Below, in pieces: positions 14,629 through 64,000 of a DNA stretch of 64,000 nt. The DNA lies in the NCBI GenBank assembly GCA_963806185.1, contig CAWDXE010000001.1, positions 960,001-1,024,000 of the forward strand. The letters run 5' to 3'. The translations under genes were made by a program, and so were the position numbers. Each line of letters begins with the position of its first letter. Positions within the stretch are counted from its first letter, which is position 1. Below the pieces are notes generated by a model. That model had not been told where the DNA came from. It did no database searches and was given only the letters and a program-made list of their open reading frames with translations. Source of the stretch: an uncultured candidate division Zixibacteria bacterium (lineage in GTDB: Bacteria; Zixibacteria; MSB-5A5; GN15; FEB-12).

Positions 14629-14996
14629 TGGTGGAGGTGGGGGGAATCGAACCCCCGTCCGAGAATACCGTCAAGCCGTCCTCTACGTGCGTAGCCAATC
14701 TATAAATTCTCGTACTCCGTGCTGCCGATCAGCAGGCCACACAAAGTACCAGTCGCGTATCGTTTAAGCTGTCTGCAACGACATCAGACCGCCGAGCCTC
14801 CTTTTACGTCGTCGTGTCCCACCGTCGAAGGCAAGACTGTGAGCACAACGGGCACATCAACTAATCAGTTACGATTAGGCAGCCATGGCGTAGTTGTTTT
14901 CGCCATTTATTGGTTCGCCCAGTTTGGTAACGGAGACCCAGACAACTCCGGCACGCCAACAACCCCCCGATAAACCCGTCGAAACCTGTCACCCCC
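14629..14996 (-). ncRNA. ssrA: tmRNA; tag peptide (A)GENNYAMAA
   Basis: 5' GGGGGUGACAGGUUUCGAC; 3' GGGGGUUCGAUUCCCCCCACCUCCACCA with a G3:U acceptor wobble; tag reading frame 14904-14875 after AUAAAU. Confidence 0.96.
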
Positions 14997-47656: not shown

Positions 47657-48645
47657 TAACTACGCCGGACGAACAACTGGCCGATCGGATTCTGTCACGC
47701 ATCCGTCGCTCGCCGCTAAAGGCCTATTCCTACGTCGATCTGGCCAAGGGGGCCAAAGCGACAGTCGACCAGGTGGCTGACGCCGTCCGCCAGATTCAAG
47801 CGTGGGGGTACAAACCGCGCGTCCGCAAACAGACAATAGCCTTTGTGCGGGGGGCGGACCTTCTCACCGCCACGGAAATCCGTTACGGTCTGAAAACCAA
47901 ACTCATCGGCAAACAGGTGGTTGCCTATGGCACGGTGAGATCTACGAACGATCTCGCTTCGCAGATGGCCGACAATGGTGCGCCGGAGGGAACCATCGTC
48001 ACCGCCGAACAACAGACCAAAGGGCGCGGGCGCTTTGGCCGAAGCTGGCACTCACCGGCCGGGCTTGGCATCTACCTCTCCATCATCCTTCGCCCCAAGT
48101 TCCCACCCGAACGGGCGCCGGGGGTTTCGCTGATGACCGCCCTGGCCGTGGCTGACACGATCGCCCGCCACTGCAAAAGCCAGGTGCAGGTGAAATGGCC
48201 CAACGATATCCTCATCGGTGGCAAGAAAACGTCGGGTATTCTCACCGAACTCTCCGCCGAACGAGGCCACATTGATCATCTCATTGTGGGGATTGGCATC
48301 AATGTCAACCATGGGGTCGCACATTTTCCGGAGGAACTGCGGACGACAGCCACGTCAGTCCGACGCGCCTTGCGCCGGAAAGTGAATCGAGTCGGACTGC
48401 TACGCGAACTCCTGGTTCGATTCGAGGCGGAGTATGCGGAATACCAGAAACACGGCCTGAAGAATTCCCAGAAACGTCTGCGCAAATACTCATCCTTACT
48501 GGGCAAGACAATCCAGTTGGCATCCGGCACCAGCATCGTTTCCGGGCAGGCGATCGACATAGATGCCAATGGCTGTCTGATAGTCGAATCCGCCGAAGGC
48601 CGCCACCAGATCGTCGCCGGCGAGGTGACGGTGGTGAAAGAGTAA
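47653..48645 (+). CDS. birA: Biotin--protein ligase with N-terminal HTH-like region
   Basis: STND, QTKGRGRFGRSW and KWPND motifs. Confidence 0.94.
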   Translation: MITTPDEQLADRILSRIRRSPLKAYSYVDLAKGAKATVDQVADAVRQIQAWGYKPRVRKQTIAFVRGADLLTATEIRYGLKTKLIGKQVVAYGTVRSTNDLASQMADNGAPEGTIVTAEQQTKGRGRFGRSWHSPAGLGIYLSIILRPKFPPERAPGVSLMTALAVADTIARHCKSQVQVKWPNDILIGGKKTSGILTELSAERGHIDHLIVGIGINVNHGVAHFPEELRTTATSVRRALRRKVNRVGLLRELLVRFEAEYAEYQKHGLKNSQKRLRKYSSLLGKTIQLASGTSIVSGQAIDIDANGCLIVESAEGRHQIVAGEVTVVKE

Positions 48646-48668
48646 CTGTCGAAAGGTAGATTATCAAT

Positions 48669-49094
48669 ATGACCACCCTGACCACTAAAATTGCCTGGGC
48701 CGGCGGACTCGCCTTTGAAGGCACCTCCACCTTCGGCCACAAGATTCGCACCGACGTCAAACGCGAGGCCGGCGGCGAGGAATCCGGCCACCGCCCCACC
48801 GAGTTGCTGCTCTATGCCATCGCCTCCTGCACCGGCGTCGACATCGTCAATATCCTGCGCAAACAACGTCAGGACTTGACCGGCCTTGAAATCGAAGTCA
48901 TCGGCACCCAGCGCGATGAATACCCCAAGGCGTTTGTCCATATCGAAATCAAGTACACCGCGCATGGAAACAACCTCGATCCGGCCAAAGTCGCCCAGGC
49001 GATCGAACTTTCGGAGAGCAAGTACTGCTCAGTAAGCGAAACCGTCCGGCGGGAGACCCACATCGAAACGAAGTTTGACATCCTCCCGGCCTGA
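48669..49094 (+). CDS. OsmC/YhfA family protein
   Basis: RPTELLL..ASCTG and KYCSVS motifs. Confidence 0.9.
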   Translation: MTTLTTKIAWAGGLAFEGTSTFGHKIRTDVKREAGGEESGHRPTELLLYAIASCTGVDIVNILRKQRQDLTGLEIEVIGTQRDEYPKAFVHIEIKYTAHGNNLDPAKVAQAIELSESKYCSVSETVRRETHIETKFDILPA

Positions 49095-49138
49095 ATCATT
49101 TCGGATCACTCGCTGTCTAACCGTAAAGAGAGGAAACT

Positions 49139-49528
49139 ATGAAAGATCAGTTGAAATACGAAATCACCAGCGACAAACCGTTTGACACCGTTGTGGCCAA
49201 TATCGAACGCCTCGTTCCCGAAAAACAATTCCGCGTCCTGCATATTCACGACGTCAAAGCGACGCTCGAAGAAAAGGGATTCTACCGCGATTCGCTGAAA
49301 ATCATCGAGGTCTGCAACGCCGGCTTCGCCAGTCAGGCTCTCCAAAAGGATGTCGACGTCGCCCTCTTCATGCCCTGCAAGTTCTCCGTCTACGTGGTGA
49401 ACGGGAAGACGCATGTTTCCCTGGCGCGGCCGTCGATGATATCGCAAATGTTGCCCCAATCCGGCTTGAATGAACTGGCCGAATCGGTGGAAAAGACACT
49501 CAAAGAGGTCATGCACGCGGCTGTCTGA
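49139..49528 (+). CDS. DUF302 domain protein
   Basis: [14 protein letters not shown] and LFMPCK motifs. Confidence 0.85.
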
Positions 49529-49739
49529 CCCTTCGCCGATTCTTCTGCTGCCCCCATTTGCCCGTTTCACATTGACTTCTGTAAGTTTTTCATTACCTTA
49601 CAGTTGTCTCGCCTCGCGACGCTGCCCTGGCCGCGCCCACGATCCTCATCGCGACGACACAACGATTGCTCGACAACAGTCAAGATCACCGGTCTTGCCT
49701 ATTAGGTACCCATCTTTTTGTCCGCCTGAGGAGGGTGAC

Positions 49740-52700
49740 ATGCACGCGTCACGGTTATCGAAATATCTCCGCACCACCTGTTTCGCCACCGCCATGGCAT
49801 TGCTATTCAGTCTATCTTCAATCGCCGAATCCATGCATGCAAACCCGTTTACCGAAGTGAAAGCACTCGCAAGCGGCGATGGCGTTCAGACTACGGTTTC
49901 GCCCGATCTCTATACTGATCTCCGACAGGGCCCGGACAGTCGTACCATCACTCTTCCGGTAAGTGGTGACCAGACGTTGGCTCTGGAATTGGTGAAGTTT
50001 TCAGTATTGGCGCCCGACGCCCGCATTCTGGTCGCTACTCCGTCCGGTCAGGAACCCCTGGCGGCCGGCGAAGCCATCACTATGCAGGGCTCAATTGCCT
50101 CTGACCCGTCGTCACATGCCTACCTCTCGATTGCCCCCTCCGGCCTGATCAACGGCTTTGTGCAGTCGGCTGACGGTTTGTTTCTCTTCTCCACCCCCAT
50201 CGAGAACCAGAAAGTAGCCGACTATCTCGTTGTCCAGCATCCTTCCGCCTTTGGCGGTGATCGGTACGACAACTTCTGCGGCACAGAGATTAACCCCGAC
50301 CGCATCCGCCAGGAACACGGCATCGCCGCAGCCAACGACAAGAAGGGCAATCTGATGCTCAACGTGGCGATCGATTGCGACCAGAGTCTTACACAAATGT
50401 ACCCTTCAGTTAGTCTGGCGCGCGACTATGTCGTGCAAGTGATCGGGGCCGTAAGCAGTATCTATCAGCGCGATCTGAAAATTCGCCTCGCGCTCCGCTT
50501 TGCCCGCTTCTGGCCGTCAGGCGGCGAGCCGTTTGACGTCAATGATCTGAGCGGTTTCCGCAGCTGGTGGGTAGGCCATGAGGATACCACCGGACTTGAC
50601 CTGACCGAAATGTGGAGCGCCCGCTTTCCGGGCTCGTATGCCGGTATTGCCTACCTCTCCAATACCTGCGAGCATTATGGGTACGGCATTCAGGCGACGA
50701 TGAATGGCACCTTCAACGTGCCGACCGTGTCCCCCCACTGGCGCGTCTGGGACGTCAATATCGTCGCCCACGAAATGGGCCACAACCTCGGCGCCTACCA
50801 CACTCACGACTACGACCCGCCGATCGACCAGTGCGGCAGTATGGGCATTCCCAGCATCGGCACGATCATGAGCTACTGCCACATTGTCGACGGCTCTATG
50901 CTCAATCTCGACCTGCGCATGCACCGTCTCATCAGTACCTGGATTCGCAGCGATATCGATTGGGCCGGCTGTCAGGAGTATGACTGCAACGGCAATTCGA
51001 TTGATGACGCCCGGGATATCGCGCTCGGCACCAGCCTTGACGTCAATCACGACGGCATCCCCGACGAATGCCAGGACTGTAATAACAACGGCATCCTCGA
51101 CCCGATCGACATTTCGAATGGCGCTCCGGATGTCGACGGCAACGGGGTACTCGATGCGTGTGAGCCCGACTGCAACGGCAATAATTACCCGGATCGCGCG
51201 GAAACCGTCAATGGCATTTCACCGGATTTTGACGGTAATTTCCTTCCGGATGCCTGCGATGCCGACTGCAATAACAACGCGGTCATCGATTTTGCCGAAA
51301 TCAATGATGATCCCCTGCTGGACCAAAATCGCAACCGTATTCTCGACGCGTGTGAAGACTGTAACAGCAATACCGTCAACGATTACTACGATATGAATCT
51401 GCAGCGACTGATGATTGTCGGCGACTCGACCAATCAGGCGTCAATGATCATTCGCACCCTCAACGGGTATAGCGGCGCTACGCACTCGAACATCCTCTCA
51501 AACAGCGGCGGTATCTGGGACCTGGTCGTCAATCCCGTCGATAGGCTGGCGTATATCGCCAATTATGATGCCGGGCGCGTCTATCGGTTCAATCCGGTGA
51601 CAAACACGGTCACATCCATACTCTCGAACGGCTACATTTCGGCCAGTGGCATAGCGTTCCACGATATCGGCGGCACGCAATACCTGTTCCTTGTACAGCG
51701 CCTGCTGAATCGAGTGCTTCGCTTCACCACCGCAGGAGCGTTGGTGGGTACTTTCGTCGCGTCGGGGAGCAGTCCGATGACTTCACCACGTGGCCTCACC
51801 TTCGGCCCTGACGGCAATCTGTACGTAGGGTGTGATGGTACCAACGCCATTTATAAGTTCGACGGTACCACGGGCGCCTATCTGGGCGTCTTCATCTCCG
51901 CGGGATCGGGTGGCCTCAATGATCCTTCCGGCATGATGTTCGACCCGGTCGGTGGCAACTTCTGGGTTGCCTCTACCGGTTCCAATCAGGTACTCGAATA
52001 CAATGGTACATCGGGCGCATATATCGGTCCGTTCACGACCGACGGCCCATTTCTGGGTGTCCCGTGGGGCATTCGCAAAGGCCCGGACGGCCTGATTTAT
52101 ATCGGACGACAAAGCCCCGACTCCCGCATCTTCGCCTTTAATCCGACTACGCGCGAATACCTCTATGCCTTCGTGCGAAATCTTGCCGATGCCTCATTCA
52201 AACCGACCGGCTTCGACTTCCTGCCCGACTCGCCCAATGATCTGAATCACAACTGGATATTGGATGCTTGTGAGTCCGGTGACTTTGACGGTGACGGTAT
52301 CGCCAACCTCACTGATAATTGCCCCGGGGCAGGAAACGCCGGACAGGTCGACTCCGACGGTGACGGCGTCGGAGATGCCTGCGACAACTGTCTGGCTGTT
52401 GCCAACCCGGATCAGCGTGACGCTGACAGTGACGGCCTGGGCGATGCGTGCGATCCCTGTCCCTCGAGCCCACTGCAAACCGATGCCGACAGCGACGGCG
52501 TTCTCGACGGCTGTGACAACTGCCCGTTGGTCAGCAATCCCGGTCAGGAAGACGTCGATGGCGACTTGATTGGCGATGCCTGCGACATCTGCGTCAACTC
52601 GCGAGACAATTCCGACACTGACGGCGACGGCGTATGTCAGTCTGAAGACAATTGCCCGGCAATAGCTAACGCCGACCAGACCGATTCGGACCATGACGGC

Positions 52701-53045
52701 ATCGGCGATGCCTGTGATTTTGACGGCGACGCCGACGGAATTAATGACAACGTCGACAACTGCCCGTTCGTCTATAACCCGGGTCAGGAGGACACTGATA
52801 ACGACGGCATCGGCGACGTTTGTTGCTGCGTGGCCGCGACCGGCAACATCGATTGTAGTGCCGGCGATGGTGTCGATATTGGTGACCTGACCGTGCTCAT
52901 CGATAACCTCTTCATTACGTTTGCACCGCTGTGCTGTCCCGGTGAAGGGAATGTTGACGCCACGGGGGGGACCGATATTAGCGATCTGACCGTCCTGATC
53001 GACAACCTGTTTATCACCTTTGGCACGCTGCCGAATTGCCAGTAG
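49740..53045 (+). CDS. Secreted M12B/reprolysin-like zinc metalloprotease with Ca-binding Cys repeats, beta-propeller, TSP type 3 repeats and dockerin-like C-terminus
   Basis: [11 protein letters not shown] and Met-turn TIMSY; DCNxN repeats; GPDG propeller; DxDxDGxGDACD repeats; GGAGG RBS before ATG 49740. Confidence 0.88.
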
Positions 53046-53068
53046 GCTGCAGGTGCCAAGACTAATGT

Positions 53069-53108
53069 AGCGGCCGTTGGAAATGCACTGTTTCCAGCGG
53101 TCGCTTTT
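53069..53108 (+). terminator. Long hairpin between convergent genes
   Basis: AGCGGCCGTTGGAAA / TTTCCAGCGGTCGCT (with G:U pairs) followed by TTT. Confidence 0.65.
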
Positions 53109-53139
53109 GCTAGTCGACCTCTGGTCACTTGGCGGACAG

Positions 53140-54537
53140 TCACTCTATGTTCATGTCCACAACTCGCGATTTGTCGAAGTCGACACATACTCCAAAGGGA
53201 ACCTTGCACTCCCAGGGCAGATTCTCACACGAGCCGTCATCTGAAGAAGCGTCGAGGAATACACAGCGACCCTCAACTTCGGTCATGACAAGCATATGAT
53301 TGAATAGTCCGGAAAGTTGAAACGGCAATTTGTCTCTGGTACTTATCAGAACCGGCCATGCTTTCACGCCGGCGCTTTCCAACATCTTTACCATTAGAAG
53401 ATTGATTTCGAACGGTACGCCGTGCCGGGTTTTGTATAGTTTCCGAAGATCGTCATGTGCCGGATGCATATTGTACCCACCACTATCTGCTGTATACTGA
53501 CTTGTGAGATAGTCACAAATCTTGACAATACGTACCATAGGCGCATCGTCAGATGACCATAGCTTGCCAAACTGCTTTCTCATGCCGATGGTAACTTTCA
53601 GATACTCATTCAGATATCCTTGAATACTCCGGCCCACGTATTGCCAGTGGGTGGAATCGTACACCCCGCGAATAATCCTGTTTTCCCCTCGATCGACGGA
53701 TGAGAATCTGTTGAAATGCAGGCCGCTGCGATTCAGTTCCGAGAAACCCTGGGCACTGCTGTCCGACGGAAATGCTCTGATATTCTCCATGTGCCAGGTG
53801 TGCTTCTTGTAGGCGGTAGCTGTCAACACCTTGACTCGTTCGACCGCCGGATCGGCTCTTTCGGCCGGCATATTTAGGGGGACAAACAGGTAATCGCAAT
53901 CTGCGCCAATCTTGGCCGTAAACTCGGAAGTGAGGCAGTATATAGGATTATCAAAATGCCAGGATGGCAGGTTCCGCATGACAATTCCTTCACCAAAATG
54001 ATCAATATCTCCCTCAATCCTCGTCTTGAACTTGTACGCGTCGTAGTAGTGCTCCTGTCCAAACAGGTAGAACGCCTCGGGCCCAAGTTTGTCAAAACCT
54101 GAGTAGTATTCGATCGTATATCGATACTCTATGATATCACCGGGCTGCAAATCAGAAAACTGCAACACACAGTATCGCCAAGGTCCCTTTTCTACTGTCT
54201 GAGAATGGTCTTTGGCAGAGAGCTTAGAGGTGATGCCCTGCCTGTGAAGCCTCATCTCAATGTCAGTCAGATGGTCATAGTGAAGATATTCAATAGTCGC
54301 CTCACCGGCTTGCACCGCGCCCGCCGGCGTGAATACTTTTAAACGGGTATGCCGGTCGAAAGTCACACCGCTCTGTTCGGTTGTGACGAGACCGCGATCA
54401 AAAAGAATTACAGCATCCGGATAGTCCGCGGTCGGTTGAAGACGCTCCTCATTCTCACTGAACTGCTCCCAGTCTTGCGCATACACGGATACGGCAAAGA
54501 GAAGCGAAAAGATAGCGAAACACCTGAGTAGATTCAT
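53140..54537 (-). CDS. Secreted DUF3857/transglutaminase-like domain protein
   Basis: Signal peptide; DAVILFD, LQPGDIIEYRY and FNHML...FLDAS motifs; GGGAGG RBS. Confidence 0.75.
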   Translation of the reverse strand: MNLLRCFAIFSLLFAVSVYAQDWEQFSENEERLQPTADYPDAVILFDRGLVTTEQSGVTFDRHTRLKVFTPAGAVQAGEATIEYLHYDHLTDIEMRLHRQGITSKLSAKDHSQTVEKGPWRYCVLQFSDLQPGDIIEYRYTIEYYSGFDKLGPEAFYLFGQEHYYDAYKFKTRIEGDIDHFGEGIVMRNLPSWHFDNPIYCLTSEFTAKIGADCDYLFVPLNMPAERADPAVERVKVLTATAYKKHTWHMENIRAFPSDSSAQGFSELNRSGLHFNRFSSVDRGENRIIRGVYDSTHWQYVGRSIQGYLNEYLKVTIGMRKQFGKLWSSDDAPMVRIVKICDYLTSQYTADSGGYNMHPAHDDLRKLYKTRHGVPFEINLLMVKMLESAGVKAWPVLISTRDKLPFQLSGLFNHMLVMTEVEGRCVFLDASSDDGSCENLPWECKVPFGVCVDFDKSRVVDMNIE

Positions 54538-54678
54538 GCGATCCTCCCACCATCACTCAAATAGTCTCCAGGCCGGACAAATCGACAACTATTACTCGGC
54601 CAAGCCGGCTTGGGCAAAATGGCAATCAATGAAAGCTGGCTGGATCACGGCGCCGACCGGCGGCAGGAAACGGTAGAT

Positions 54679-54764
54679 TTGAGTTGGCGGAGGACTGCCG
54701 GACACCATCTACTCTCCGTGAGCACTCGGGTGAGTGGCTACCAGTTTATGCCTTTTCACTCAAC
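54679..54764 (-). ncRNA. Candidate structured small RNA of unknown family
   Basis: TTGACA-17-TAATTT promoter (54798-54770) with no ORF at the start site; self-complementary ends and internal stems. Confidence 0.35.
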
Positions 54765-54913
54765 AGGCGAAATTAAGATCCTAATAATGGTGTGTCAAGT
54801 CGAGAATTGCTCGCAGCCGAATTTGTGAGGCCGAAATCGGTGGGAACAAAGGTCATCTTTCGCGGAGACGAAATTCAGAGGAACTGCCCGCCTGCGGGTG
54901 TTGTTTCCCCTGC

Positions 54914-55117
54914 ATGCGTTTAGTTCGGTCAATCTTTGACAATCGATTCACCCGCTTGGGGCTGTTTGTTCTGGCCGGCGGCCTGCTGGGTGTTGCCATC
55001 TCGGTCGCTTATTCGTATTTTGGTTCCACCTGACAGATCATGTGTAATCCATACCTGGCCGGGTCGCTGGGTGCCGGAGTCGGACTTATGCTGTCGCTGG
55101 ATAAGGCGAAAAACTAG
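54914..55117 (+). CDS. Candidate selenoprotein: 67-aa two-TM membrane protein with UxxxC motif (UGA at 55031-55033)
   Basis: MRLVRSIFDNRFTRLGLFVLAGGLLGVAISVAYSYFGST-U-QIMCNPYLAGSLGAGVGLMLSLDKAKN; readthrough ends 1 nt before the next ATG; SECIS-like hairpin at 55053-55072. Confidence 0.7.
55053..55072 (+). promoter_or_regulatory. Candidate SECIS element 1
   Basis: ACCUGGC-CGGGUC-GCUGGGU; 7-bp stem, loop starting 26 nt after UGA. Confidence 0.6.
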
Positions 55118-55118
55118 A

Positions 55119-55334
55119 ATGCCGATTTTTGAGTATCAATGCCGCGATTGCGGCCGCAAATTCGAAGAGCTGGTGGGCGCAGCCGACGAAGCGATGAGCT
55201 GTCCCTCGTGCCAGTCGCAAAATGTCTTGAAACTGCTGTCGGTCTTCGCCGCCTCCGTGCCGTCCGGTGGCAGTGCTCCGGCGACTGCTTGCGGACGCCC
55301 CGGCTGTGGCGCCGGATTCAGTTGAGCCAATTGA
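55119..55334 (+). CDS. FmdB-family zinc-ribbon protein, candidate C-terminal selenocysteine (...CGRPGCGAGFS-U-AN)
   Basis: MPIFEYQCRDC...CPSC motif; UGA at 55323-55325 followed by a GGUC hairpin; ends at 55325 if UGA is a stop. Confidence 0.85.
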
Positions 55335-55339
55335 AGTGC

Positions 55340-55357
55340 GGCTCGCGGTCGCGGGCC
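55340..55357 (+). promoter_or_regulatory. Candidate SECIS element 2
   Basis: GGCUCGC-GGUC-GCGGGCC; 7-bp stem, loop starting 21 nt after UGA. Confidence 0.62.
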
Positions 55358-55368
55358 ATCGGAGAACT

Positions 55369-55902
55369 ATGAAGAACCTCGGTCTTAGCGTTGTCGTCAC
55401 CGTCCTGTTGATTGCAGGTTGCGGCCCGGCAAAACATCTCGATGACAAACTCGACTGGCAGAAGATCGGTACTGTTGCGGCCAATTTCCCCGCTGCCCCG
55501 CAACCCGGCTCCAAACCGATCTTTCTCTACTTCAGCCAGAATAACTGCCACTACTGTGCCGCGATGGACAGCCTTTTTGAACGGTCGGAGGTCGCCTGGT
55601 ATATCAACGAGCACTTCCTGCCGGTAAATGTAAACGTGGATACCGATCTCCCCCTGTATGTGGGCCGTGACACCCTCGACTACGCGCGTCTCTTCAAGAT
55701 CTTCAAAATGGACGGATTCCCGGCCTATTACTTTTTCGACACTACCGGTCACCTCATGGGGATGCTGGAACGCTCCATGGACCTGGTGCACCTCAAACGG
55801 AGTCTTGTTTACGTCAACGATGGTCACTTCGGCAAGCTGTCCTGGGAGGATTTTTTGAAGTTACCCGACGTACCAAAGGACACCGTTCGGGGAATCTTCT
55901 AG
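55369..55902 (+). CDS. Thioredoxin-fold lipoprotein (CHYC; SoxW/DUF255-like)
   Basis: Lipobox IAGC; KPIFLYFSQNNCHYCAAM and cis-Pro GFP motifs; GGAG RBS. Confidence 0.85.
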   Translation: MKNLGLSVVVTVLLIAGCGPAKHLDDKLDWQKIGTVAANFPAAPQPGSKPIFLYFSQNNCHYCAAMDSLFERSEVAWYINEHFLPVNVNVDTDLPLYVGRDTLDYARLFKIFKMDGFPAYYFFDTTGHLMGMLERSMDLVHLKRSLVYVNDGHFGKLSWEDFLKLPDVPKDTVRGIF

Positions 55903-56666
55903 CCGCGCTTTTGTGCCACCACGCAGATTCGTCCGGCATCCGCCGGCGCCTTTCCAAAGGTCCTGCAGTCGTAGACGCCGCGAATGACGAATCCGGCCCG
56001 GCGCACGAGCCGTTGTATCTCTGCTGGAGTATACCCGCGCTCGCAATGGGTTTCATCAAAGCGCTTCCAGTACTTCCCTTGCCGCACAAAAAACGCCGCG
56101 CGCAGTATGCCCAGCTTCCGCTTCGCGTCAAACTCCGCTCGCCACGCCCAGGCCAGATCATCAGTCGCCCCCGTCGAATTCTGCCACCTTCCAAGCCCGG
56201 CCAGCGTGTTCATGTCGAATATCAGCCACCCGCCGGGTACGGTGCGTGTATGCGCAGCGCGAAACGTTGCCAACAACTCCCGCTCTGTCAGGAGGTAGTT
56301 CAGGGCGTCGTAATAGCTGGTGACCAGGTCAAACCCCGTACCGATCGCTCTATCCGGTAGCTCCAGCTTAGGCAGGGTCGATCGGTAGAACCGTGCGTCG
56401 AAGCGGTGGCATTTCTCTCGGGCCACCTTCAGCATGGCCGCCGATTGATCAACTCCGACAACGCTATACCCATGCTCGGCAAACAGCTTTGCCGCCGTTC
56501 CGGTGCCGCAACACAGGTCGAGCACTCGACGAGGTCGAATCTTGTGGCGCCGCATAAGTTCCAGTGAATAGGCCACCATCTTCGTAGAAAATCGGTCCAT
56601 ACCGATCTGGTCATACACATCGGCGAACCGGCCGTAGACGCCGCGCGACCCGGTTTTAGTTGACAC
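55899..56666 (-). CDS. Class I SAM-dependent methyltransferase
   Basis: VLDLCCGTG and DALNY motifs; GGAGG RBS before GTG 56666. Confidence 0.9.
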   Translation of the reverse strand: MSTKTGSRGVYGRFADVYDQIGMDRFSTKMVAYSLELMRRHKIRPRRVLDLCCGTGTAAKLFAEHGYSVVGVDQSAAMLKVAREKCHRFDARFYRSTLPKLELPDRAIGTGFDLVTSYYDALNYLLTERELLATFRAAHTRTVPGGWLIFDMNTLAGLGRWQNSTGATDDLAWAWRAEFDAKRKLGILRAAFFVRQGKYWKRFDETHCERGYTPAEIQRLVRRAGFVIRGVYDCRTFGKAPADAGRICVVAQKRG

Positions 56667-56775
56667 TTTTTTTCCTCCAAATTTCTTACCAGCACGTATA
56701 CTCGGTTGCGACGGAAGCGGCAAGCAGAACTTTCACGTCTGGGCCGCAGCTCCGACGCAGAGAAAGGAACCCCTG

Positions 56776-57204
56776 ATGACGACGATGTTCTGGATATGGA
56801 TGGCGGCGGCGCTCATCTTTCTGATTATCGAGTTGACCACACCGACCCTGATCTTTCTGTCCTTCGTGGTCGCAGCAGCAGCAGCCGGTATTTATTCATA
56901 CTTTGAGCCGACGGAATACTATTGGCAACTGGGTATCTTCGCCGCACTGTCGCTAATACTGATTCCCACTACCCGCCGGTTTGCCAAGCGGATTACGAAG
57001 GAAGCCCCCGAGCATGCCAATGTCGATCGCATGTTGGGCGGCATTGCCATCGTCACCAAGGATATCGACCCCGATGTGGGCGGCCAGGTGAAGTACGAGG
57101 GCGAATTGTGGGTGGCCAAAGCCGACGAGCCGATCGCGGCCAACAACAAAGTCAAAATCATCTCGGTGGCCGGCACACGCGTGCACGTCCAGAAAGTGAG
57201 CTAA
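56776..57204 (+). CDS. NfeD family membrane protein
   Basis: Hydrophobic N-terminus and GQVKYEGELWVA OB-fold; adjacent to the SPFH gene. Confidence 0.9.
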   Translation: MTTMFWIWMAAALIFLIIELTTPTLIFLSFVVAAAAAGIYSYFEPTEYYWQLGIFAALSLILIPTTRRFAKRITKEAPEHANVDRMLGGIAIVTKDIDPDVGGQVKYEGELWVAKADEPIAANNKVKIISVAGTRVHVQKVS

Positions 57205-57207
57205 GTC

Positions 57208-58188
57208 GTGGAATCGTCACTGCATCCGGTTGTCATTTTTCTCCTCGTCCTGGTTGTCTTTGCATTCATTTATGTGCTTGCGGCGATACGTACCATCCGC
57301 CCCTTTGAAAAAGGACTGATTGAACGTCTCGGTCGCTTTCAGCGCGTCATCAATCCCGGCCTGAATTTGATTGTGCCGTTTTTCGACACCCTGATCAAAG
57401 TCGATATGCGCGAGGTAGTCATCGAAGTCCCGGCCCAGCTGGTGATCACCAAAGACAACGTCAATGTCGAGGTTGACGCTGTCATCTACTGTCAGGTGAC
57501 TGACCCCTTCCGCTCCCGCTACGAAATCACCAATTACATCATGGCGGCCACCAAACTGGCGCAAACCAACCTCCGTAACGTGATCGGCGAGCTCGACCTG
57601 GACCAGTGCCTGTCGTCACGCGAGCGGATCAACTCCCAATTGCGCGATGTCATGGATCAGGCGACCGACAAGTGGGGCGTAAAGGTCAATCGTATTGAAC
57701 TCCAGCGCATCGATCCGCCGGCCGACATCACGCAGGCGATGAGCCGCCAAATGAAGGCCGAACGTGACAAGCGCGCCACCATTCTCGACGCGGAAGCGAT
57801 CCGGCAGTCGGAAATCACGAAGGCGGAAGGCTCCAAGCTGTCACAGATTCTCGAAGCCGAAGGGTACTCACAATCGATACGGCTGAAAGCGGATGCGGAG
57901 AAGTATCGTCAAATCGCCGTGGCCGAGGGTGAAGCTCAGGCCACTATCAACGTCTTCAAGGCGATTCACGAGGGCCAGCCCGACGAACGACTGATCACAC
58001 TCAAATATCTGGAGATGCTGCCCAAACTGGCTGAGAACGAAGCCAACAAGATCTTCATGCCGTACGAAGCGACGGGAATCATTGCGAGCCTTGCGGCCAT
58101 GGTTGACGGTGTGCGTCTGAACAACGCCCCGAAGGCGAAAACTCCGGTGGCGGTCACCGCCACGCCCCCACCGATGAAGCAGGGGTAG
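57208..58188 (+). CDS. SPFH/Band 7 (stomatin/QmcA-like) protein
   Basis: ERLGRF, ITKDNV and QMKAERDKRA motifs. Confidence 0.94.
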   Translation: MESSLHPVVIFLLVLVVFAFIYVLAAIRTIRPFEKGLIERLGRFQRVINPGLNLIVPFFDTLIKVDMREVVIEVPAQLVITKDNVNVEVDAVIYCQVTDPFRSRYEITNYIMAATKLAQTNLRNVIGELDLDQCLSSRERINSQLRDVMDQATDKWGVKVNRIELQRIDPPADITQAMSRQMKAERDKRATILDAEAIRQSEITKAEGSKLSQILEAEGYSQSIRLKADAEKYRQIAVAEGEAQATINVFKAIHEGQPDERLITLKYLEMLPKLAENEANKIFMPYEATGIIASLAAMVDGVRLNNAPKAKTPVAVTATPPPMKQG

Positions 58189-58281: not shown

Positions 58282-58782
58282 ATGTCGATTCTTCGACGTT
58301 ACCCCAGTTTCGGAAAACCGGTTTTCGTGACGATGGTGACATGTAACCGAGCACCCGTTCTTGAACCAATGAGGTCGATGATTCTCGGCAAATTGCGTCG
58401 ACTGGACAGAGAAGGCGCTTGGCAACTCACCGCATGGGTCATATTGCCCGATCACCTTCACTTGCTAGTGCTCCCCAAGACGGCAGAGATATCACCCTTG
58501 ATTCATCGAGCAAAAATGGCGATTAGCTCAGGGTTACGCGCGCGGATAGGACACTCATTTGGGCGACTGTGGCAACATCGCTTCTTCGATCACATCATTC
58601 GAAATCAAGAAGATATGAATCGACACATAGATTACATTCACTACAACCCGGTAAGACATCACCTTGCGATCTCTCCGGGCGAGTATGAATATTCTTCCTT
58701 CAAGCTGTATCTCACTGACGAGAAGTATGAAGCTGATTGGGGCAGCGTGGAGGGGATGGATGGAAGGGACTTTGGCGAGTAG
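58282..58782 (+). mobile_element. rayT: REP-associated tyrosine transposase (RAYT, Y1 HUH)
   Basis: FVTMVT, WVILPDHLH (HUH), WQHRFFDHIIR and YIHYNPV motifs; flanked by inverted REPs. Confidence 0.92.
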
Positions 58783-59693: not shown

Positions 59694-62636
59694 TCAATCG
59701 CACGGTGCGATCGGTGTGAAGGATATGAACATATAGTCCACCAGCGCCGTCAGGTCGCCGATATCCGGTGCCGACGGATTCCCCAGGCCGTCGCAATTCG
59801 CCTCTTCCGGACAACACAACGGTGTGAAGCTGATGAACAGGTTGTCTATGAGCACGGTTAGGTCACCAATATCCGGCTCCTCCAGTGTGCTGCAGTCAAT
59901 ATTCCCGGTCGATCCTTTGCAGCAGGTGGTTGCAGGATTGATACAGGTGCAATGCACCGGTGCCGGCCCTATGCCGATTCCGTAGTCGATAATGTACTGA
60001 ATATCGGCGTAGTTGATGATGCAGTCACCATTGGGATCACCGTTGGCCAGAGGCGATGGAGCGGGTCCACCGATTGTCAGATAGTTGATCAAATAGCTGA
60101 CGTCATTGATATCAATGGCGCCGTCGCTGTTCGCATCGCCCGGCATCTGCCCCAGACACGTATCGGCGGGGCAAATGACAAGCGCGAACTCCAAAACCGT
60201 GTGGATTGGTGCACCCACCGGTTGCACCGGCACCCAGCCCGGATTGTAGTAGTTCTGCCCCTGGAAATTCGCCACGTTTCCTGCATTAACAGGGTATCCC
60301 GAAAATTCCAGATGGAACGCCGGTGGCACCATGGGCAGGCAGGTCGACGGCACGACCGAATACCGATCGTGATGTATCGTCCCATGCGGTCCGGATACAT
60401 ACTGAGCGTCATTGTGCACGCTCGACGGATGGGCGGCCGCCTCATTGTCGTCGAAGTACGGATCAGAGATGCAAAACGCGGGTGTGCTCTCATCCGTACA
60501 GACTCCGGCTATCGTGACAAAATGGCCACCGATACGTTCACAGTAACCGGGCGCCATTTCCTGCCAGAAACCAAGCAGGAGAATCACATCCTGGCTCTTC
60601 ATTACCTGACTCTGCAACCACTCATAACCAAACGCCGGCTCGATCGGCACAACCTGTAACGTGTAGTAAGGGGCCAGTCCGGCGCCGTTGATCCAGGTCT
60701 GGGCAGCGGTGGCCAGATCGAATATGTTGGTTCCCGGCATCACGATATTGGTGTTTGCCAGTTTCGCCAAGGTATCGACGAATGGAATCACATTCGACGG
60801 GTCATGATCGTCCGCCTGAGTCATGCCTCGCACCAACGGATACTGATCACACACCGCGGGTGGCGGCGTGGTGCAGGTGTCGAATTTCGAATCAAACCAC
60901 CAGAGGCAATTGGCCAGGGCCACCGGCCCGCAGTGCGTCCACGGCGCGCCGGGTGGCATGCCGAACCACCAGCCATTCTGCTTTTGATCAAAGTCAGGCA
61001 TCCCCGCCGGGGTGTAATCCAGGTCGGCCGCCTTGTAATATTCACAAGTGTCGGGCCCCGCGCCGGGCACCGGAACTATGGCAGAGAACTCTGACGTATT
61101 CCTATTTACATCCGTAACGGTCGTCGTGAGAAAATCGCCGGGAGATGCCGCTGCAACTGTCAGCGTCCAGCTCCCATCCAGCAGCGGTGCCGCGCTGCCC
61201 AGATACGCCCGTCCCTCTCCATAACCGCTCGGGTCGGGACTGGCGAGGAATAACTCGACCGTTGCAGTGGTCGGGTCTCCGGGAATCGTTACCACGCCCG
61301 CCACCGTGGTATTGCCACCGGCGTAAGTGACTGATATAATCCCCGGAAAATTCAGCTCTTCGTTCGGCCCGGTGTCCAAGTCTCCCAGATCATTCAATGT
61401 TACACCATCGCTCTTCAAGTCGATGCCCAACGCGGCGTTGTCAAAGATGGCATTCATGGTGATCCGATTGCCGTCCGCATTGGTGTTGTCAACGGCATCC
61501 TCCCATACCGAAACACCGGCGGCGCCATTGGCGGAGATGCGGTTGCCCGGTCCTATCACGTTTCTCGGAGCGCATCCCCATTTGGCCTGGCCATATTCAC
61601 CGGCCGTCACGCCATTAAAGAGATTGGGCAGGGGGACGTTCGCAATGTCCAGGCCGATGATATTGGAATCGACGGTGTTGCTGTGAGTGAGAATAGGCGA
61701 TCCGAATCCTACGTTGTTGTACCCCTGGATGCCTATGCCGTCAAAATCATTGCCTGAGACCAGATTTCCGCGAACCAGATTGTGATGCGTGCCTTCGGCC
61801 AGACAAACCCCGTCGTGATCGTTCCCCAAATCTGCGGTCCCGTAGATATCGGTGCCAATGTAATTGTAGAGGATGAAGTTTTGCCAGACATCGCCCGGCA
61901 ATTGAGGTCCGATCACCGCCACACCTTCAGCATAATTTCCGGAAATGAGATTATGAGTGACCGTATTCCGGCAGGCGTAGCCCCCGGGTATGTTCTTAAT
62001 GCGCACGCCGCCCCACAGGGCTGTCATTTGACCGTTTCCCTGATCGAGCGTACCCTTGGGATCAGTGCCGATGAAACAACATTCAATCAGGTTATCGCAT
62101 GCCTCTCCGGTCGGCGTCCCCTCAATGCGAATGCCATCCTCCATGAACTGGTTGATCACCAGCCCACGAATGACATTGTTTGATGACTGTACATTTAGCC
62201 CAGGTGTCGGACCCGCTTGCGGTCCGGTGAGTACAATCATCAATATCGCTGTTGAAGGTGGATTGGTGCCGGCCGCAGAACCGGCCTGTGACAAACCGTC
62301 GATCACCACTCCGGATTGATCGGTGAGTGGCGGCAGGCCCGGCGGGAGAATCCAGAAGAAATATGGCCCCGGGAGGGGAAGATTGAAGATGATGGAATCT
62401 CGGCCCAGATTCGCATTGGCCGCCTGAATGGCCGCGCGAAGACTGCCGACTCCTCCATCCAGAACTGTGGTAACCACCAGGACAGCGGACGGTGAACGTG
62501 GCGCCTTCTGCCCCACTTGATTATCAGCCGATTCGCCTGGTGCTCGAATGGCGAGATCTCTGGTCTCAGCAATGGCTGCGGAGGCCAGGAGAAAAATAGC
62601 GACGCACACTACCATACACGCCCGGAAACGGAACAT
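59694..62636 (-). CDS. Secreted protein: parallel beta-helix, putative papain-fold Cys peptidase, two dockerin-like modules
   Basis: Signal peptide, GSLRAAI..AN, NxISGN repeats, DQ...HCGPVALANC and GGHFVT, GDANSDGAIDINDV; GGAGG RBS. Confidence 0.8.
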   Translation of the reverse strand: MFRFRACMVVCVAIFLLASAAIAETRDLAIRAPGESADNQVGQKAPRSPSAVLVVTTVLDGGVGSLRAAIQAANANLGRDSIIFNLPLPGPYFFWILPPGLPPLTDQSGVVIDGLSQAGSAAGTNPPSTAILMIVLTGPQAGPTPGLNVQSSNNVIRGLVINQFMEDGIRIEGTPTGEACDNLIECCFIGTDPKGTLDQGNGQMTALWGGVRIKNIPGGYACRNTVTHNLISGNYAEGVAVIGPQLPGDVWQNFILYNYIGTDIYGTADLGNDHDGVCLAEGTHHNLVRGNLVSGNDFDGIGIQGYNNVGFGSPILTHSNTVDSNIIGLDIANVPLPNLFNGVTAGEYGQAKWGCAPRNVIGPGNRISANGAAGVSVWEDAVDNTNADGNRITMNAIFDNAALGIDLKSDGVTLNDLGDLDTGPNEELNFPGIISVTYAGGNTTVAGVVTIPGDPTTATVELFLASPDPSGYGEGRAYLGSAAPLLDGSWTLTVAAASPGDFLTTTVTDVNRNTSEFSAIVPVPGAGPDTCEYYKAADLDYTPAGMPDFDQKQNGWWFGMPPGAPWTHCGPVALANCLWWFDSKFDTCTTPPPAVCDQYPLVRGMTQADDHDPSNVIPFVDTLAKLANTNIVMPGTNIFDLATAAQTWINGAGLAPYYTLQVVPIEPAFGYEWLQSQVMKSQDVILLLGFWQEMAPGYCERIGGHFVTIAGVCTDESTPAFCISDPYFDDNEAAAHPSSVHNDAQYVSGPHGTIHHDRYSVVPSTCLPMVPPAFHLEFSGYPVNAGNVANFQGQNYYNPGWVPVQPVGAPIHTVLEFALVICPADTCLGQMPGDANSDGAIDINDVSYLINYLTIGGPAPSPLANGDPNGDCIINYADIQYIIDYGIGIGPAPVHCTCINPATTCCKGSTGNIDCSTLEEPDIGDLTVLIDNLFISFTPLCCPEEANCDGLGNPSAPDIGDLTALVDYMFISFTPIAPCD

Positions 62637-63038
62637 ACATCCTCCTGCGCGCAAACGATTAATATGTAGTACCCAGTCTGCCGCGGCTGGATATTTGATT
62701 GTCGCGTAAAATGTGTCCAGGAGCCCGAGAGTCGGATTGGAACTCTGCGACTCCTGCATATGGAGTCTCTATAATTGAAATGTATCCCTGCCCTCAACAT
62801 GCGTCAAGACAATTCGGGCGTGGAACTATACGGGATAATCTTAAGGACTATTATTCACTTTGTTGACGATTACGGTCGCGTTGAGGGCGTTTCTTGTCAG
62901 CGGAGGGGCACCCCCTCTCGGCCAAGTCAATGGAGCAGGCAAGACAGGGGGCGTCAGCAGGTGTCAGTAAGGTCAACCTGGGCACTTGGGACTCGCGCCC
63001 AGGTTGGTTGTGTACTTACCGCTTGGTTGTGATGACCA

Positions 63039-64000
63039 TCACTGACAGGCGGGCAACACACTGAAATTGATAAACAGGCTGTCTATCAGCGCCGTCAGGT
63101 CGCCGATGTCAATGCCGCTCCAGCCATCGCAGTTTGCCTCAGCCTCGCAGCATAACGGCCCGAAGGTAATGAACAGGTTGTCGATCAGCGCCGTCAGATC
63201 GCCGATATCTACACCGTCGCCCGCCGAGCAGTCGATATTCCCTATCGTGGCGACACAACAGCCACCTCCATTGACATAACTGAAGGTGGGTGCCATTCGC
63301 ACGAATGCGCCGGAGCCGTTGGGCAAACGTCCCGTGCTGCTGTCGGTTACCTGAGCAGGAAATGTCACCGAGTCGATGATGGCCAAAACGGTATCCGACA
63401 GTATTACCGCCTCGCCCGACTTGGATAACGCAAACTTGGCGTGCAGTCCTGCCTGCAGCGTATCCTCGTCCGCCCAAATCATCAGATAGCCCCCCGCGGC
63501 GATCGACGTATCAGGGAATGTCCACTTGCCGGGATTGGTCACCTTGTCGGACAGGTGGCACCCCTTGAGCGATATCGGCGCCGCCGACGGATTGTAGAGT
63601 TCGATCCAGTCATCGTACTCGCCGTCCTGATCGGCTTGCGTAGTACCGTTGTCCGCCATGAACTCATTGATAACTACCTCGGAAACGGTTGGCGACGTAA
63701 CGATCACCACGGAATCTTCAAATTCAGCTCTGGCCGGCAGGAAAGAACCGGCCGACGCATTTTCCGCGTAGATATAGAAGTGAATGTCGGAAGTGCCGGC
63801 GGTGATGGATACGCCGTAGACACTATCTCCGGCTGCGCCATCGTTGTGATTGCCGTCATCCAGCATGTCGGCTTTCACAAAACCTTCGGCGGCACTCGCC
63901 TTGTAGCCAAGCTTCACGCTGGCGGCATACCGAACGTGCGCCGTAAAGGTCGCCGGATTACCGATCTCCACGGTTGTCGGCGTGTGAGACACCGCTACGA
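63039..64000 (-). CDS. C-terminal part of a secreted protein with a lamin-tail domain and dockerin-like C-terminus (5' end outside the window)
   Basis: VVINEFMADN...DWIELYN (LTD), DDGNHNDGAAGD and the Cys-bracketed dockerin-like tail. Confidence 0.85.
   Translation of the reverse strand, partial: VAVSHTPTTVEIGNPATFTAHVRYAASVKLGYKASAAEGFVKADMLDDGNHNDGAAGDSVYGVSITAGTSDIHFYIYAENASAGSFLPARAEFEDSVVIVTSPTVSEVVINEFMADNGTTQADQDGEYDDWIELYNPSAAPISLKGCHLSDKVTNPGKWTFPDTSIAAGGYLMIWADEDTLQAGLHAKFALSKSGEAVILSDTVLAIIDSVTFPAQVTDSSTGRLPNGSGAFVRMAPTFSYVNGGGCCVATIGNIDCSAGDGVDIGDLTALIDNLFITFGPLCCEAEANCDGWSGIDIGDLTALIDSLFINFSVLPACQ

Follow-up and report, generated by a model that had tools for sequence, protein, structure and literature searches.

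Is a TGA codon in the middle of a short, unannotated reading frame read as selenocysteine (Sec), and if so, what kind of protein carries it? The question is raised by a small locus in the 64,000-nucleotide stretch of DNA analysed here, referred to throughout as the window. A preliminary description of the window had proposed a hidden membrane selenoprotein with a UxxxC motif at this position.

The reading frame and its predicted product

The candidate gene (54914–55117, like all features of the locus on the + strand unless stated) has 67 codons. It opens with ATG at 54914, meets an in-frame TGA at 55031–55033 and closes with TAG at 55115–55117, a single base ahead of the ATG of the next gene at 55119, the arrangement given in the preliminary description. 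Translation through the TGA yields 67 amino acids, with the putative Sec at position 40 and a cysteine (TGT, 55043–55045) at position 44, a U40-x3-C44 pattern. The frame was unannotated and had been described as two helices joined by the loop GST-U-QIMCNP. AlphaFold2, run with a 72-row alignment, agrees, predicting helix 1 at residues 11–36 (54944–55021; hydrophobic and glycine-spaced) and helix 2 at residues 46–65 (55049–55108), with a mean pLDDT of 69. Residues G53 and G57 are invariant among 25 TGA forms. The choice of ATG 54914 as the start is uncertain, because no clear ribosome-binding site was seen ahead of it and most relatives begin ∼33–35 codons ahead of the site, compared with 39 here. 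A weak promoter-like match lies at 54760–54788.

A misread base at 55031 had been raised as a possible source of the TGA, and strain contigs show TGA there and no TGC, TGT or TGG. For example, a 151-nt contig of depth 2 from an independent run (X7) spans the site with the TGA and the downstream hairpin identical. None of its seven differences falls in either element, and the four that lie in the gene 3′ of the TGA are all synonymous third-position changes. The X6 contig also spans the site, with no TGA difference among the 8 of its 15 differences listed; the contigs of runs X1–X5 and X10 lacked a 31-nt overlap on both sides of the TGA. An RNA run (n = 1) covered only the thioredoxin gene of the window, and no habitat was assigned since all run shares were below 0.2. 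An Rfam scan of 48000–58000 returned no match. A genome-wide coding-potential scan, itself noisy, placed this TGA at rank 78 of 47817.

Decoding machinery and the genetic code

The genome (82% complete) contains tRNA-Sec, selA, selB (over cut-off) and a selD with an in-frame TGA of its own, and thus all of selA, selB, selC and selD, which the preliminary description had named as the machinery to look for. Of six further TGA candidates tested in the same genome, four (L200–L203, on G000 C4, C3 and C7) match known selenoprotein-type families, namely HesB-like, thioredoxin-TPR with UxxC, and two DUF1573 genes with UGC, and two match no family. Across the phylum, selA is present in 262 of 285 genomes, and hence there is no useful negative group for the TGA forms. 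A search for tRNA-Sec at E ≤ 1e-8 found none in G049 or G286 (150 candidates scored in each), and both genomes have selA and selB.

Could the TGA instead be read as Trp, as in codes of the 4 or 25 type, or be a sequencing error? A W stands at the site in three database homologues (P0002, P0005 and P0106), as Trp decoding would have it. The DNA encoding P0002 (two metagenome matches), however, reads TGA at the site, so the W there stands for TGA. All 30 matches (26 distinct) to a metagenome pattern permitting TGN carry TGA and none TGG, a result biased towards TGA forms because the pattern was derived from the TGA subfamily. Furthermore, TGA is the commonest stop, ending 481 of 1098 long genes, which argues that the code is not reassigned, and the sole tRNA with a TCA anticodon is tRNA-Sec. 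With the strain contigs also reading TGA, the probability that remains for Trp decoding or a sequencing error is very small.

TGA and Cys share one column

A homologue was found in 24 of 40 relatives, and all 24 carry TGA in the same column. Of 285 genomes in the phylum, 169 were matched by a 72-row profile whose site column is C or U in every row; TGA occurs within 113 of the 150 matches listed, by a hand count in which at least one TGA is a terminal stop only. At the DNA level, 87 distinct loci have TGA (57), Cys as TGC or TGT (29) or Arg as AGA (1) at the site, in a non-random sample for which Cys forms were deliberately fetched and whose relatives are not independent. Two weak matches (L046 and L047, E ∼0.09) and eight duplicate loci of the same genomes were left out of these counts, and the site was set by hand in L075, L079 and L095. 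The single Arg codon belongs to L079 (G117:C52), whose gene is otherwise intact, proximal hairpin included, and points to either misassembly or a recent mutation.

A site-masked tree (87 rows, 55 columns) requires seven changes at this position, at least six of them forced by well-supported branches; it is unrooted with many open forks, and gains are not distinguishable from losses. The closest relative of the window gene on the tree, L054, carries Cys. A wider 64-row tree, from which L161 was left out, rejects a single clade of TGA forms (p-AU 2e-52). In a second phylum, that of G286, 20 of 121 genomes match and TGA occupies the site in 9 of 21 matches. None of the 15 Bacteroidota-centred loci carries TGA there, and selA was absent from the one such genome checked. 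Because relatives carry either TGA or Cys in the same column, the TGA at 55031–55033 is, on this comparative evidence, very likely decoded as selenocysteine.

Two further observations concern the canonical motif. L105 (G049:C40) has CxxGx-U-MITSSP with TGA in an otherwise Cys clade, followed by a short GGUG-loop hairpin at +17, and is likely a separate Sec gain. A GTDB-wide DNA pattern for this motif gave 16 matches, of which one (L119) is real and 15 look like chance.

Conservation beyond the UGA, to which the preliminary description had looked for a decision, is evident. Over the 21 codons past the TGA, in-frame stops occur in 0 of 57 TGA forms; the other two frames are interrupted in 52 and 23 of them. 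The pN/pS ratio there is 0.33 (21 pairs), synonymous change is 0.28 versus 0.49 upstream, and the strain changes noted above are synonymous only. A true stop at the TGA would mean either a pseudogene or a peptide of 39 amino acids, perhaps accompanied by a second one that restarts at Met43. Such a restart is suggested by an ATG within five codons past the TGA in 44 of 57 TGA forms, and two database products are indeed cut at the TGA: P0112 and P0150, the latter an NCBI hypothetical protein of Candidatus Zixiibacteriota, presumably the phylum to which the window belongs. Yet the 13 forms that lack this ATG still keep the frame, the Cys forms are one continuous protein, and a nonsense change is not expected to hit the same Cys column again and again in distinct lineages that also have hairpins. 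We therefore regard a true stop as very improbable. Trp reassignment, sequencing error and a split gene were all rejected, on the grounds of code use, tRNA set, strain contigs and frame conservation.

Candidate SECIS hairpins

A hairpin with a GGUC-containing loop had been proposed 26 nt past the UGA, with 7 base pairs, and it is found at 55052–55073. It has 8 pairs counting a terminal U-G and 7 without it, a folding energy of −9.0 kcal/mol and a 6-nt loop, CGGGUC, with G at position 2. The bacterial SECIS model in PMC13188914 calls for a loop of 3–9 nt, a G in the first two loop positions and a distance of 16–37 nt from the UGA; a scripted check placed the window hairpin within all four constraints of that model. 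Among 2500 Cys codons in the same genome, just 2.3% are followed by an equally strong G-loop hairpin at that spacing. Nonetheless, the window hairpin shows no gain in stability over shuffled sequence (z ∼0), with p = 0.13 against synonymous shuffles.

Comparison among relatives is more telling than the single hairpin. G-loop hairpins (≤ −3 kcal/mol, 16–37 or 45–52 nt) follow the site in 54 of 57 TGA forms versus 6 of 29 Cys forms; the background for such hairpins after Cys codons of the genome is 27% and 12%. Tested at each hairpin position against synonymous shuffles, p ≤ 0.05 was reached in only 10 of the 57 TGA forms. A consensus helix from +43 to +59 has a mean pair probability of ∼0.35, compared with 0–0.03 in Cys forms and 0.07–0.09 in synonymous shuffles, and two-sided changes occur at 4 of its 6 pairs, as counted on the same sequences that served to define the helix.

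The position of the hairpin differs between groups. LA[GS]S-type sequences, including the window gene, have the proximal hairpin in 12 of 12 cases and the distal one in 1 of 12, and the other 71 sequences have 5 proximal and 53 distal hairpins, a partly circular count given that the group is defined by residues encoding the hairpin. Five genome-derived LA[GS]S-type sequences group on the tree with moderate support only. In the second phylum, a C(GGUC)G hairpin stands at +20 nt in 9 of 9 TGA forms. The distal hairpin, 43–59 nt after the TGA (L024, L027, L030, L106, L107 and others), takes the GG that starts its loop from an invariant Gly codon. A hairpin at ∼+50 also occurs in a separate TGA lineage (L106 and L107) and is absent from its Cys sisters.

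The proposal that the window hairpin is a SECIS element thus stands in part: it fits the model and is common to its sub-clade, to which its position is specific, but it is not significant alone, and most relatives place their hairpin elsewhere. That common position, 48–49 nt from the UGA, lies outside the 16–37 nt stated in PMC13188914. From the comparison of TGA and Cys forms, we infer that this distal hairpin may be a working SECIS. If so, the spacing rule of SECIS search tools would be too narrow.

Gene neighbourhood and a second candidate selenoprotein

The next gene (55119–55334) encodes an FmdB-family zinc-ribbon protein (TIGR02605). Its frame reaches a TGA at 55323–55325 that is likely Sec (...GFS-U-A-N) and, shortly after, another TGA at 55332–55334 that is likely the stop. 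A candidate SECIS for this gene, a 7-bp hairpin with a GGUC loop, lies at 55340–55357, 21 nt after the first TGA. Downstream follows a gene for a thioredoxin-fold protein with a CHYC motif (55369–55902; PF13098 over cut-off), which appears to be a periplasmic lipoprotein, judging by eye from its lipobox-like LIAGC N-terminus. Upstream are an OsmC-like gene (48669–49094), usually just upstream of the membrane gene in relatives, and a DUF302 gene (49139–49528), which is directly upstream in relatives and ∼5.4 kb off here. The interval between DUF302 and the membrane gene (49530–54900) holds an M12 metallopeptidase/TSP3-repeat gene (+) and a DUF3857/transglutaminase-like gene (−). A search of the literature on DUF302 function found nothing relevant.

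This neighbourhood recurs among relatives. Within 1.5-kb flanks, all 87 loci have FmdB downstream; 54 have DUF302 upstream and 52 have OsmC, and in 26 a thioredoxin-fold gene lies downstream. In 86 of 87 loci the FmdB gene reaches a TGA with a further stop one to four codons on, the remaining one being a pattern mis-hit. The resulting tails (UG*, UAS* or UASC*) are also found beside Cys forms of the membrane protein. The FmdB TGA is followed in 73 of 86 cases by a hairpin of ≤ −5 kcal/mol, with a GGUC loop in 48, against a background of 83 and 47 among 481 TGA-ending genes. On these sequence patterns FmdB is likely a second selenoprotein, with Sec near its C-terminus.

FmdB selenoproteins have been predicted before from ocean reads, with a CxxU motif described in two sequences (PMC2398784), and the motif is listed as UxxU in the 2026 table (PMC13188914). 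The gene downstream of the membrane gene belongs to the same TIGR02605 family as the ocean-read sequences, but unlike those described in PMC2398784 it has its TGA one to four codons ahead of the C-terminus, outside the zinc ribbon. It suggests a further selenoprotein class hidden at gene ends.

The Cys forms at the 15 Bacteroidota-centred loci have rhodanese (7), thioredoxin-fold (6), DUF302 (4) and OsmC (2) neighbours, with YeeE-type, FmdB and CoA-disulfide-reductase-like genes at one locus each. A thioredoxin, rhodanese, OsmC or CoA-disulfide-reductase-like neighbour was present at 13 of 15, in a scan of 40 and 64 ORFs taken mostly from 131 candidates. In the second phylum, the selection of ORFs scanned beside eight of the nine TGA forms contained no redox family, and the ninth likewise showed none. 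The domain is fused to thioredoxin in two database proteins (P0158 and P0038).

Other features of the window are recorded here for completeness. A Y1 (IS200-like) transposase gene (58282–58782, +) lies below the redox cluster, and a tmRNA gene (14629–14996, −) encodes the tag GENNYAMAA. Three large secreted-type proteins (49740–53045, +; 59694–62759, −; 63039–63992, −) have a similar Cys-/Asp-rich C-terminal domain, which may be dockerin-like.

Possible function and mechanism

Sec usually replaces a functional Cys, and the site therefore marks a catalytic residue in an otherwise uncharacterised family. A partner Cys is found at +4 or 4–7 residues upstream in 119 of 121 members, with both in two only, and at +4 in 49 of 57 TGA forms. 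An invariant site residue accompanied by a second Cys of alternating position suggests a pattern of attacking and resolving residues. By the positive-inside rule, positively charged tails of membrane proteins stay in the cytoplasm. Mean K+R counts are 3.5 in the N-tail, 0.16 in the loop and 1.4 in the C-tail, and this charge bias places the tails inside and the loop outside.

A mechanism can be sketched from these features. SelB would bind the hairpin at 55052–55073, and Sec would be inserted at position 40. Both ends of the protein would be cytoplasmic and the U40/C44 loop periplasmic. U40 could then attack an oxidised sulfur species such as a disulfide, persulfide or peroxide, and C44 would resolve the adduct to give a selenenyl-sulfide. 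A thioredoxin-fold partner, for example the putative lipoprotein at 55369–55902, might recycle the U40/C44 pair. The cluster of OsmC, DUF302, membrane protein, Sec-tailed FmdB and thioredoxin-fold protein would in this way handle reactive sulfur or oxidative stress at the membrane. We lean slightly towards this reading, in which a Sec/Cys redox pair anchored in the membrane serves in reactive-sulfur or oxidative stress and depends on a thioredoxin-fold partner for its recycling. One feature sits awkwardly with it: the fused thioredoxin domains would be cytoplasmic, opposite the predicted loop side, so that direct contact is unexplained.

The same feature is what an oligomeric trans-membrane conduit, with the selenoprotein as its subunit, would accommodate. 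CcdA/DsbD and YeeE/YedE carry electrons or sulfane sulfur through the membrane. A conduit for either is in keeping with the glycine-spaced helices, with C-terminal thioredoxin fusions in the cytoplasm while the loop faces out, and with the neighbours at the 15 Bacteroidota-centred loci, of which seven have rhodanese and one a YeeE-type gene. Against this, the model puts the U/C pair on a surface loop and not mid-membrane, and a 67-residue hairpin has no evident moving part; a conduit therefore seems unlikely. Structure comparison bears on any likeness to CcdA/DsbD or YeeE/YedE through a small, low-confidence helical model: Foldseek gave no match at E ≤ 0.001, and another structure search (best Z 5.9) returned generic helical hairpins only. 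A PDB sequence search gave two weak partial matches, and the thioredoxin fusion, modelled from its sequence alone, reached a pLDDT of 51, too low for use.

MerF/MerT-type proteins are small membrane metal transport proteins, and the window protein might similarly use U40/C44 to bind and pass on soft metals (Cu, Hg). Its two-helix size, the Sec/Cys ligand pair and the adjoining zinc-ribbon gene would suit such a role. A Sec-containing mercuric transport protein is moreover listed in the 2026 catalogue (PMC13188914). Still, none of 25 members matched a Mer family of Pfam or NCBIfam (E ≤ 0.1), and the neighbours are thiol and sulfur enzymes, not metal pumps or regulators, which makes metal transfer a distinctly doubtful reading.

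Returning to the redox reading, a broader picture can be drawn of an uncatalogued, membrane-bound Sec/Cys-switching family with an in-CDS SECIS at +20 (one phylum), +26–28 (sub-clade) or +48–49 (most), which together with the Sec-ended FmdB would form a two-selenoprotein redox or sulfur-relay module. We hold this full picture to be evenly balanced between right and wrong.

Relation to DUF6132 and to known selenoproteins

The preliminary description had likened the loop to the GTCPITSNP motif of DUF6132-like proteins. A profile search returned 455 proteins at E ≤ 0.001, and 19 of the top 39 scanned passed the DUF6132 (PF19628) gathering cut-off of 23.2 bits. Comparison by hhalign with these 19 members gave 99.55% (E 1.9e-23, 61 columns), the 19 having themselves been found with a profile of the window protein's own family. 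The window protein had no match in Pfam or NCBIfam, and at E ≤ 0.1 DUF6132 was matched by 3 of 25 TGA forms (best 3.5e-4). Word-indexed protein searches with the window protein or a 25-row alignment gave no match, whereas the unindexed profile search did find homologues. In an atlas, a Cys homologue lies near DUF6132 clusters at 0.86–0.87, a lead only.

The likened motif therefore holds up in that the TGA aligns with its Cys and the profiles are homologous, but not as family membership, the window protein being below the Pfam cut-off. Like DUF6132 Cys forms, it has two glycine-spaced helices, a TGA aligned with the loop Cys of GTCPITSNP, and DUF302, OsmC, thioredoxin and FmdB neighbours in common. 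Unlike them, it has Sec with a partner Cys at +4 (UxxxC), where DUF6132 has its partner five residues upstream (CxxGxC), and it is without the YYxFIGC segment. In other words, of the DUF6132 loop CxxGxC-PITSNP, the loop GST-U-QIMCNP keeps the second position as Sec and lacks the first Cys. Judged by profile alignment, the window protein is a homologous sister branch of DUF6132, not a Pfam member.

The family is absent from the 119-family catalogue and from NCBIfam. Table 1 of PMC13188914 lists 119 bacterial selenoprotein families, among them those of PMC12013261, and holds neither a DUF6132/PF19628 entry nor a UxxxC motif. Our literature search found no prior report of DUF6132/PF19628 as a selenoprotein; supplements, subscription journals or RefSeq annotations could hold one. 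Catalogues miss the family because gene callers end the protein at the TGA or write W. Its recognition adds a small integral-membrane family, likely redox-active, to the bacterial selenoproteome.

The nearest catalogued entries by type in PMC13188914 are the mercuric transport protein PF02411, YeeE/YedE PF04143 and the SaoP permease. The window family differs from these three in that their Pfam/NCBIfam models match 0 of 25 members at E ≤ 0.1. Like the selenoproteins described in that catalogue, it combines a UGA at a conserved Cys position, a 3′ hairpin with G first in the loop, Cys homologues and a membrane location.
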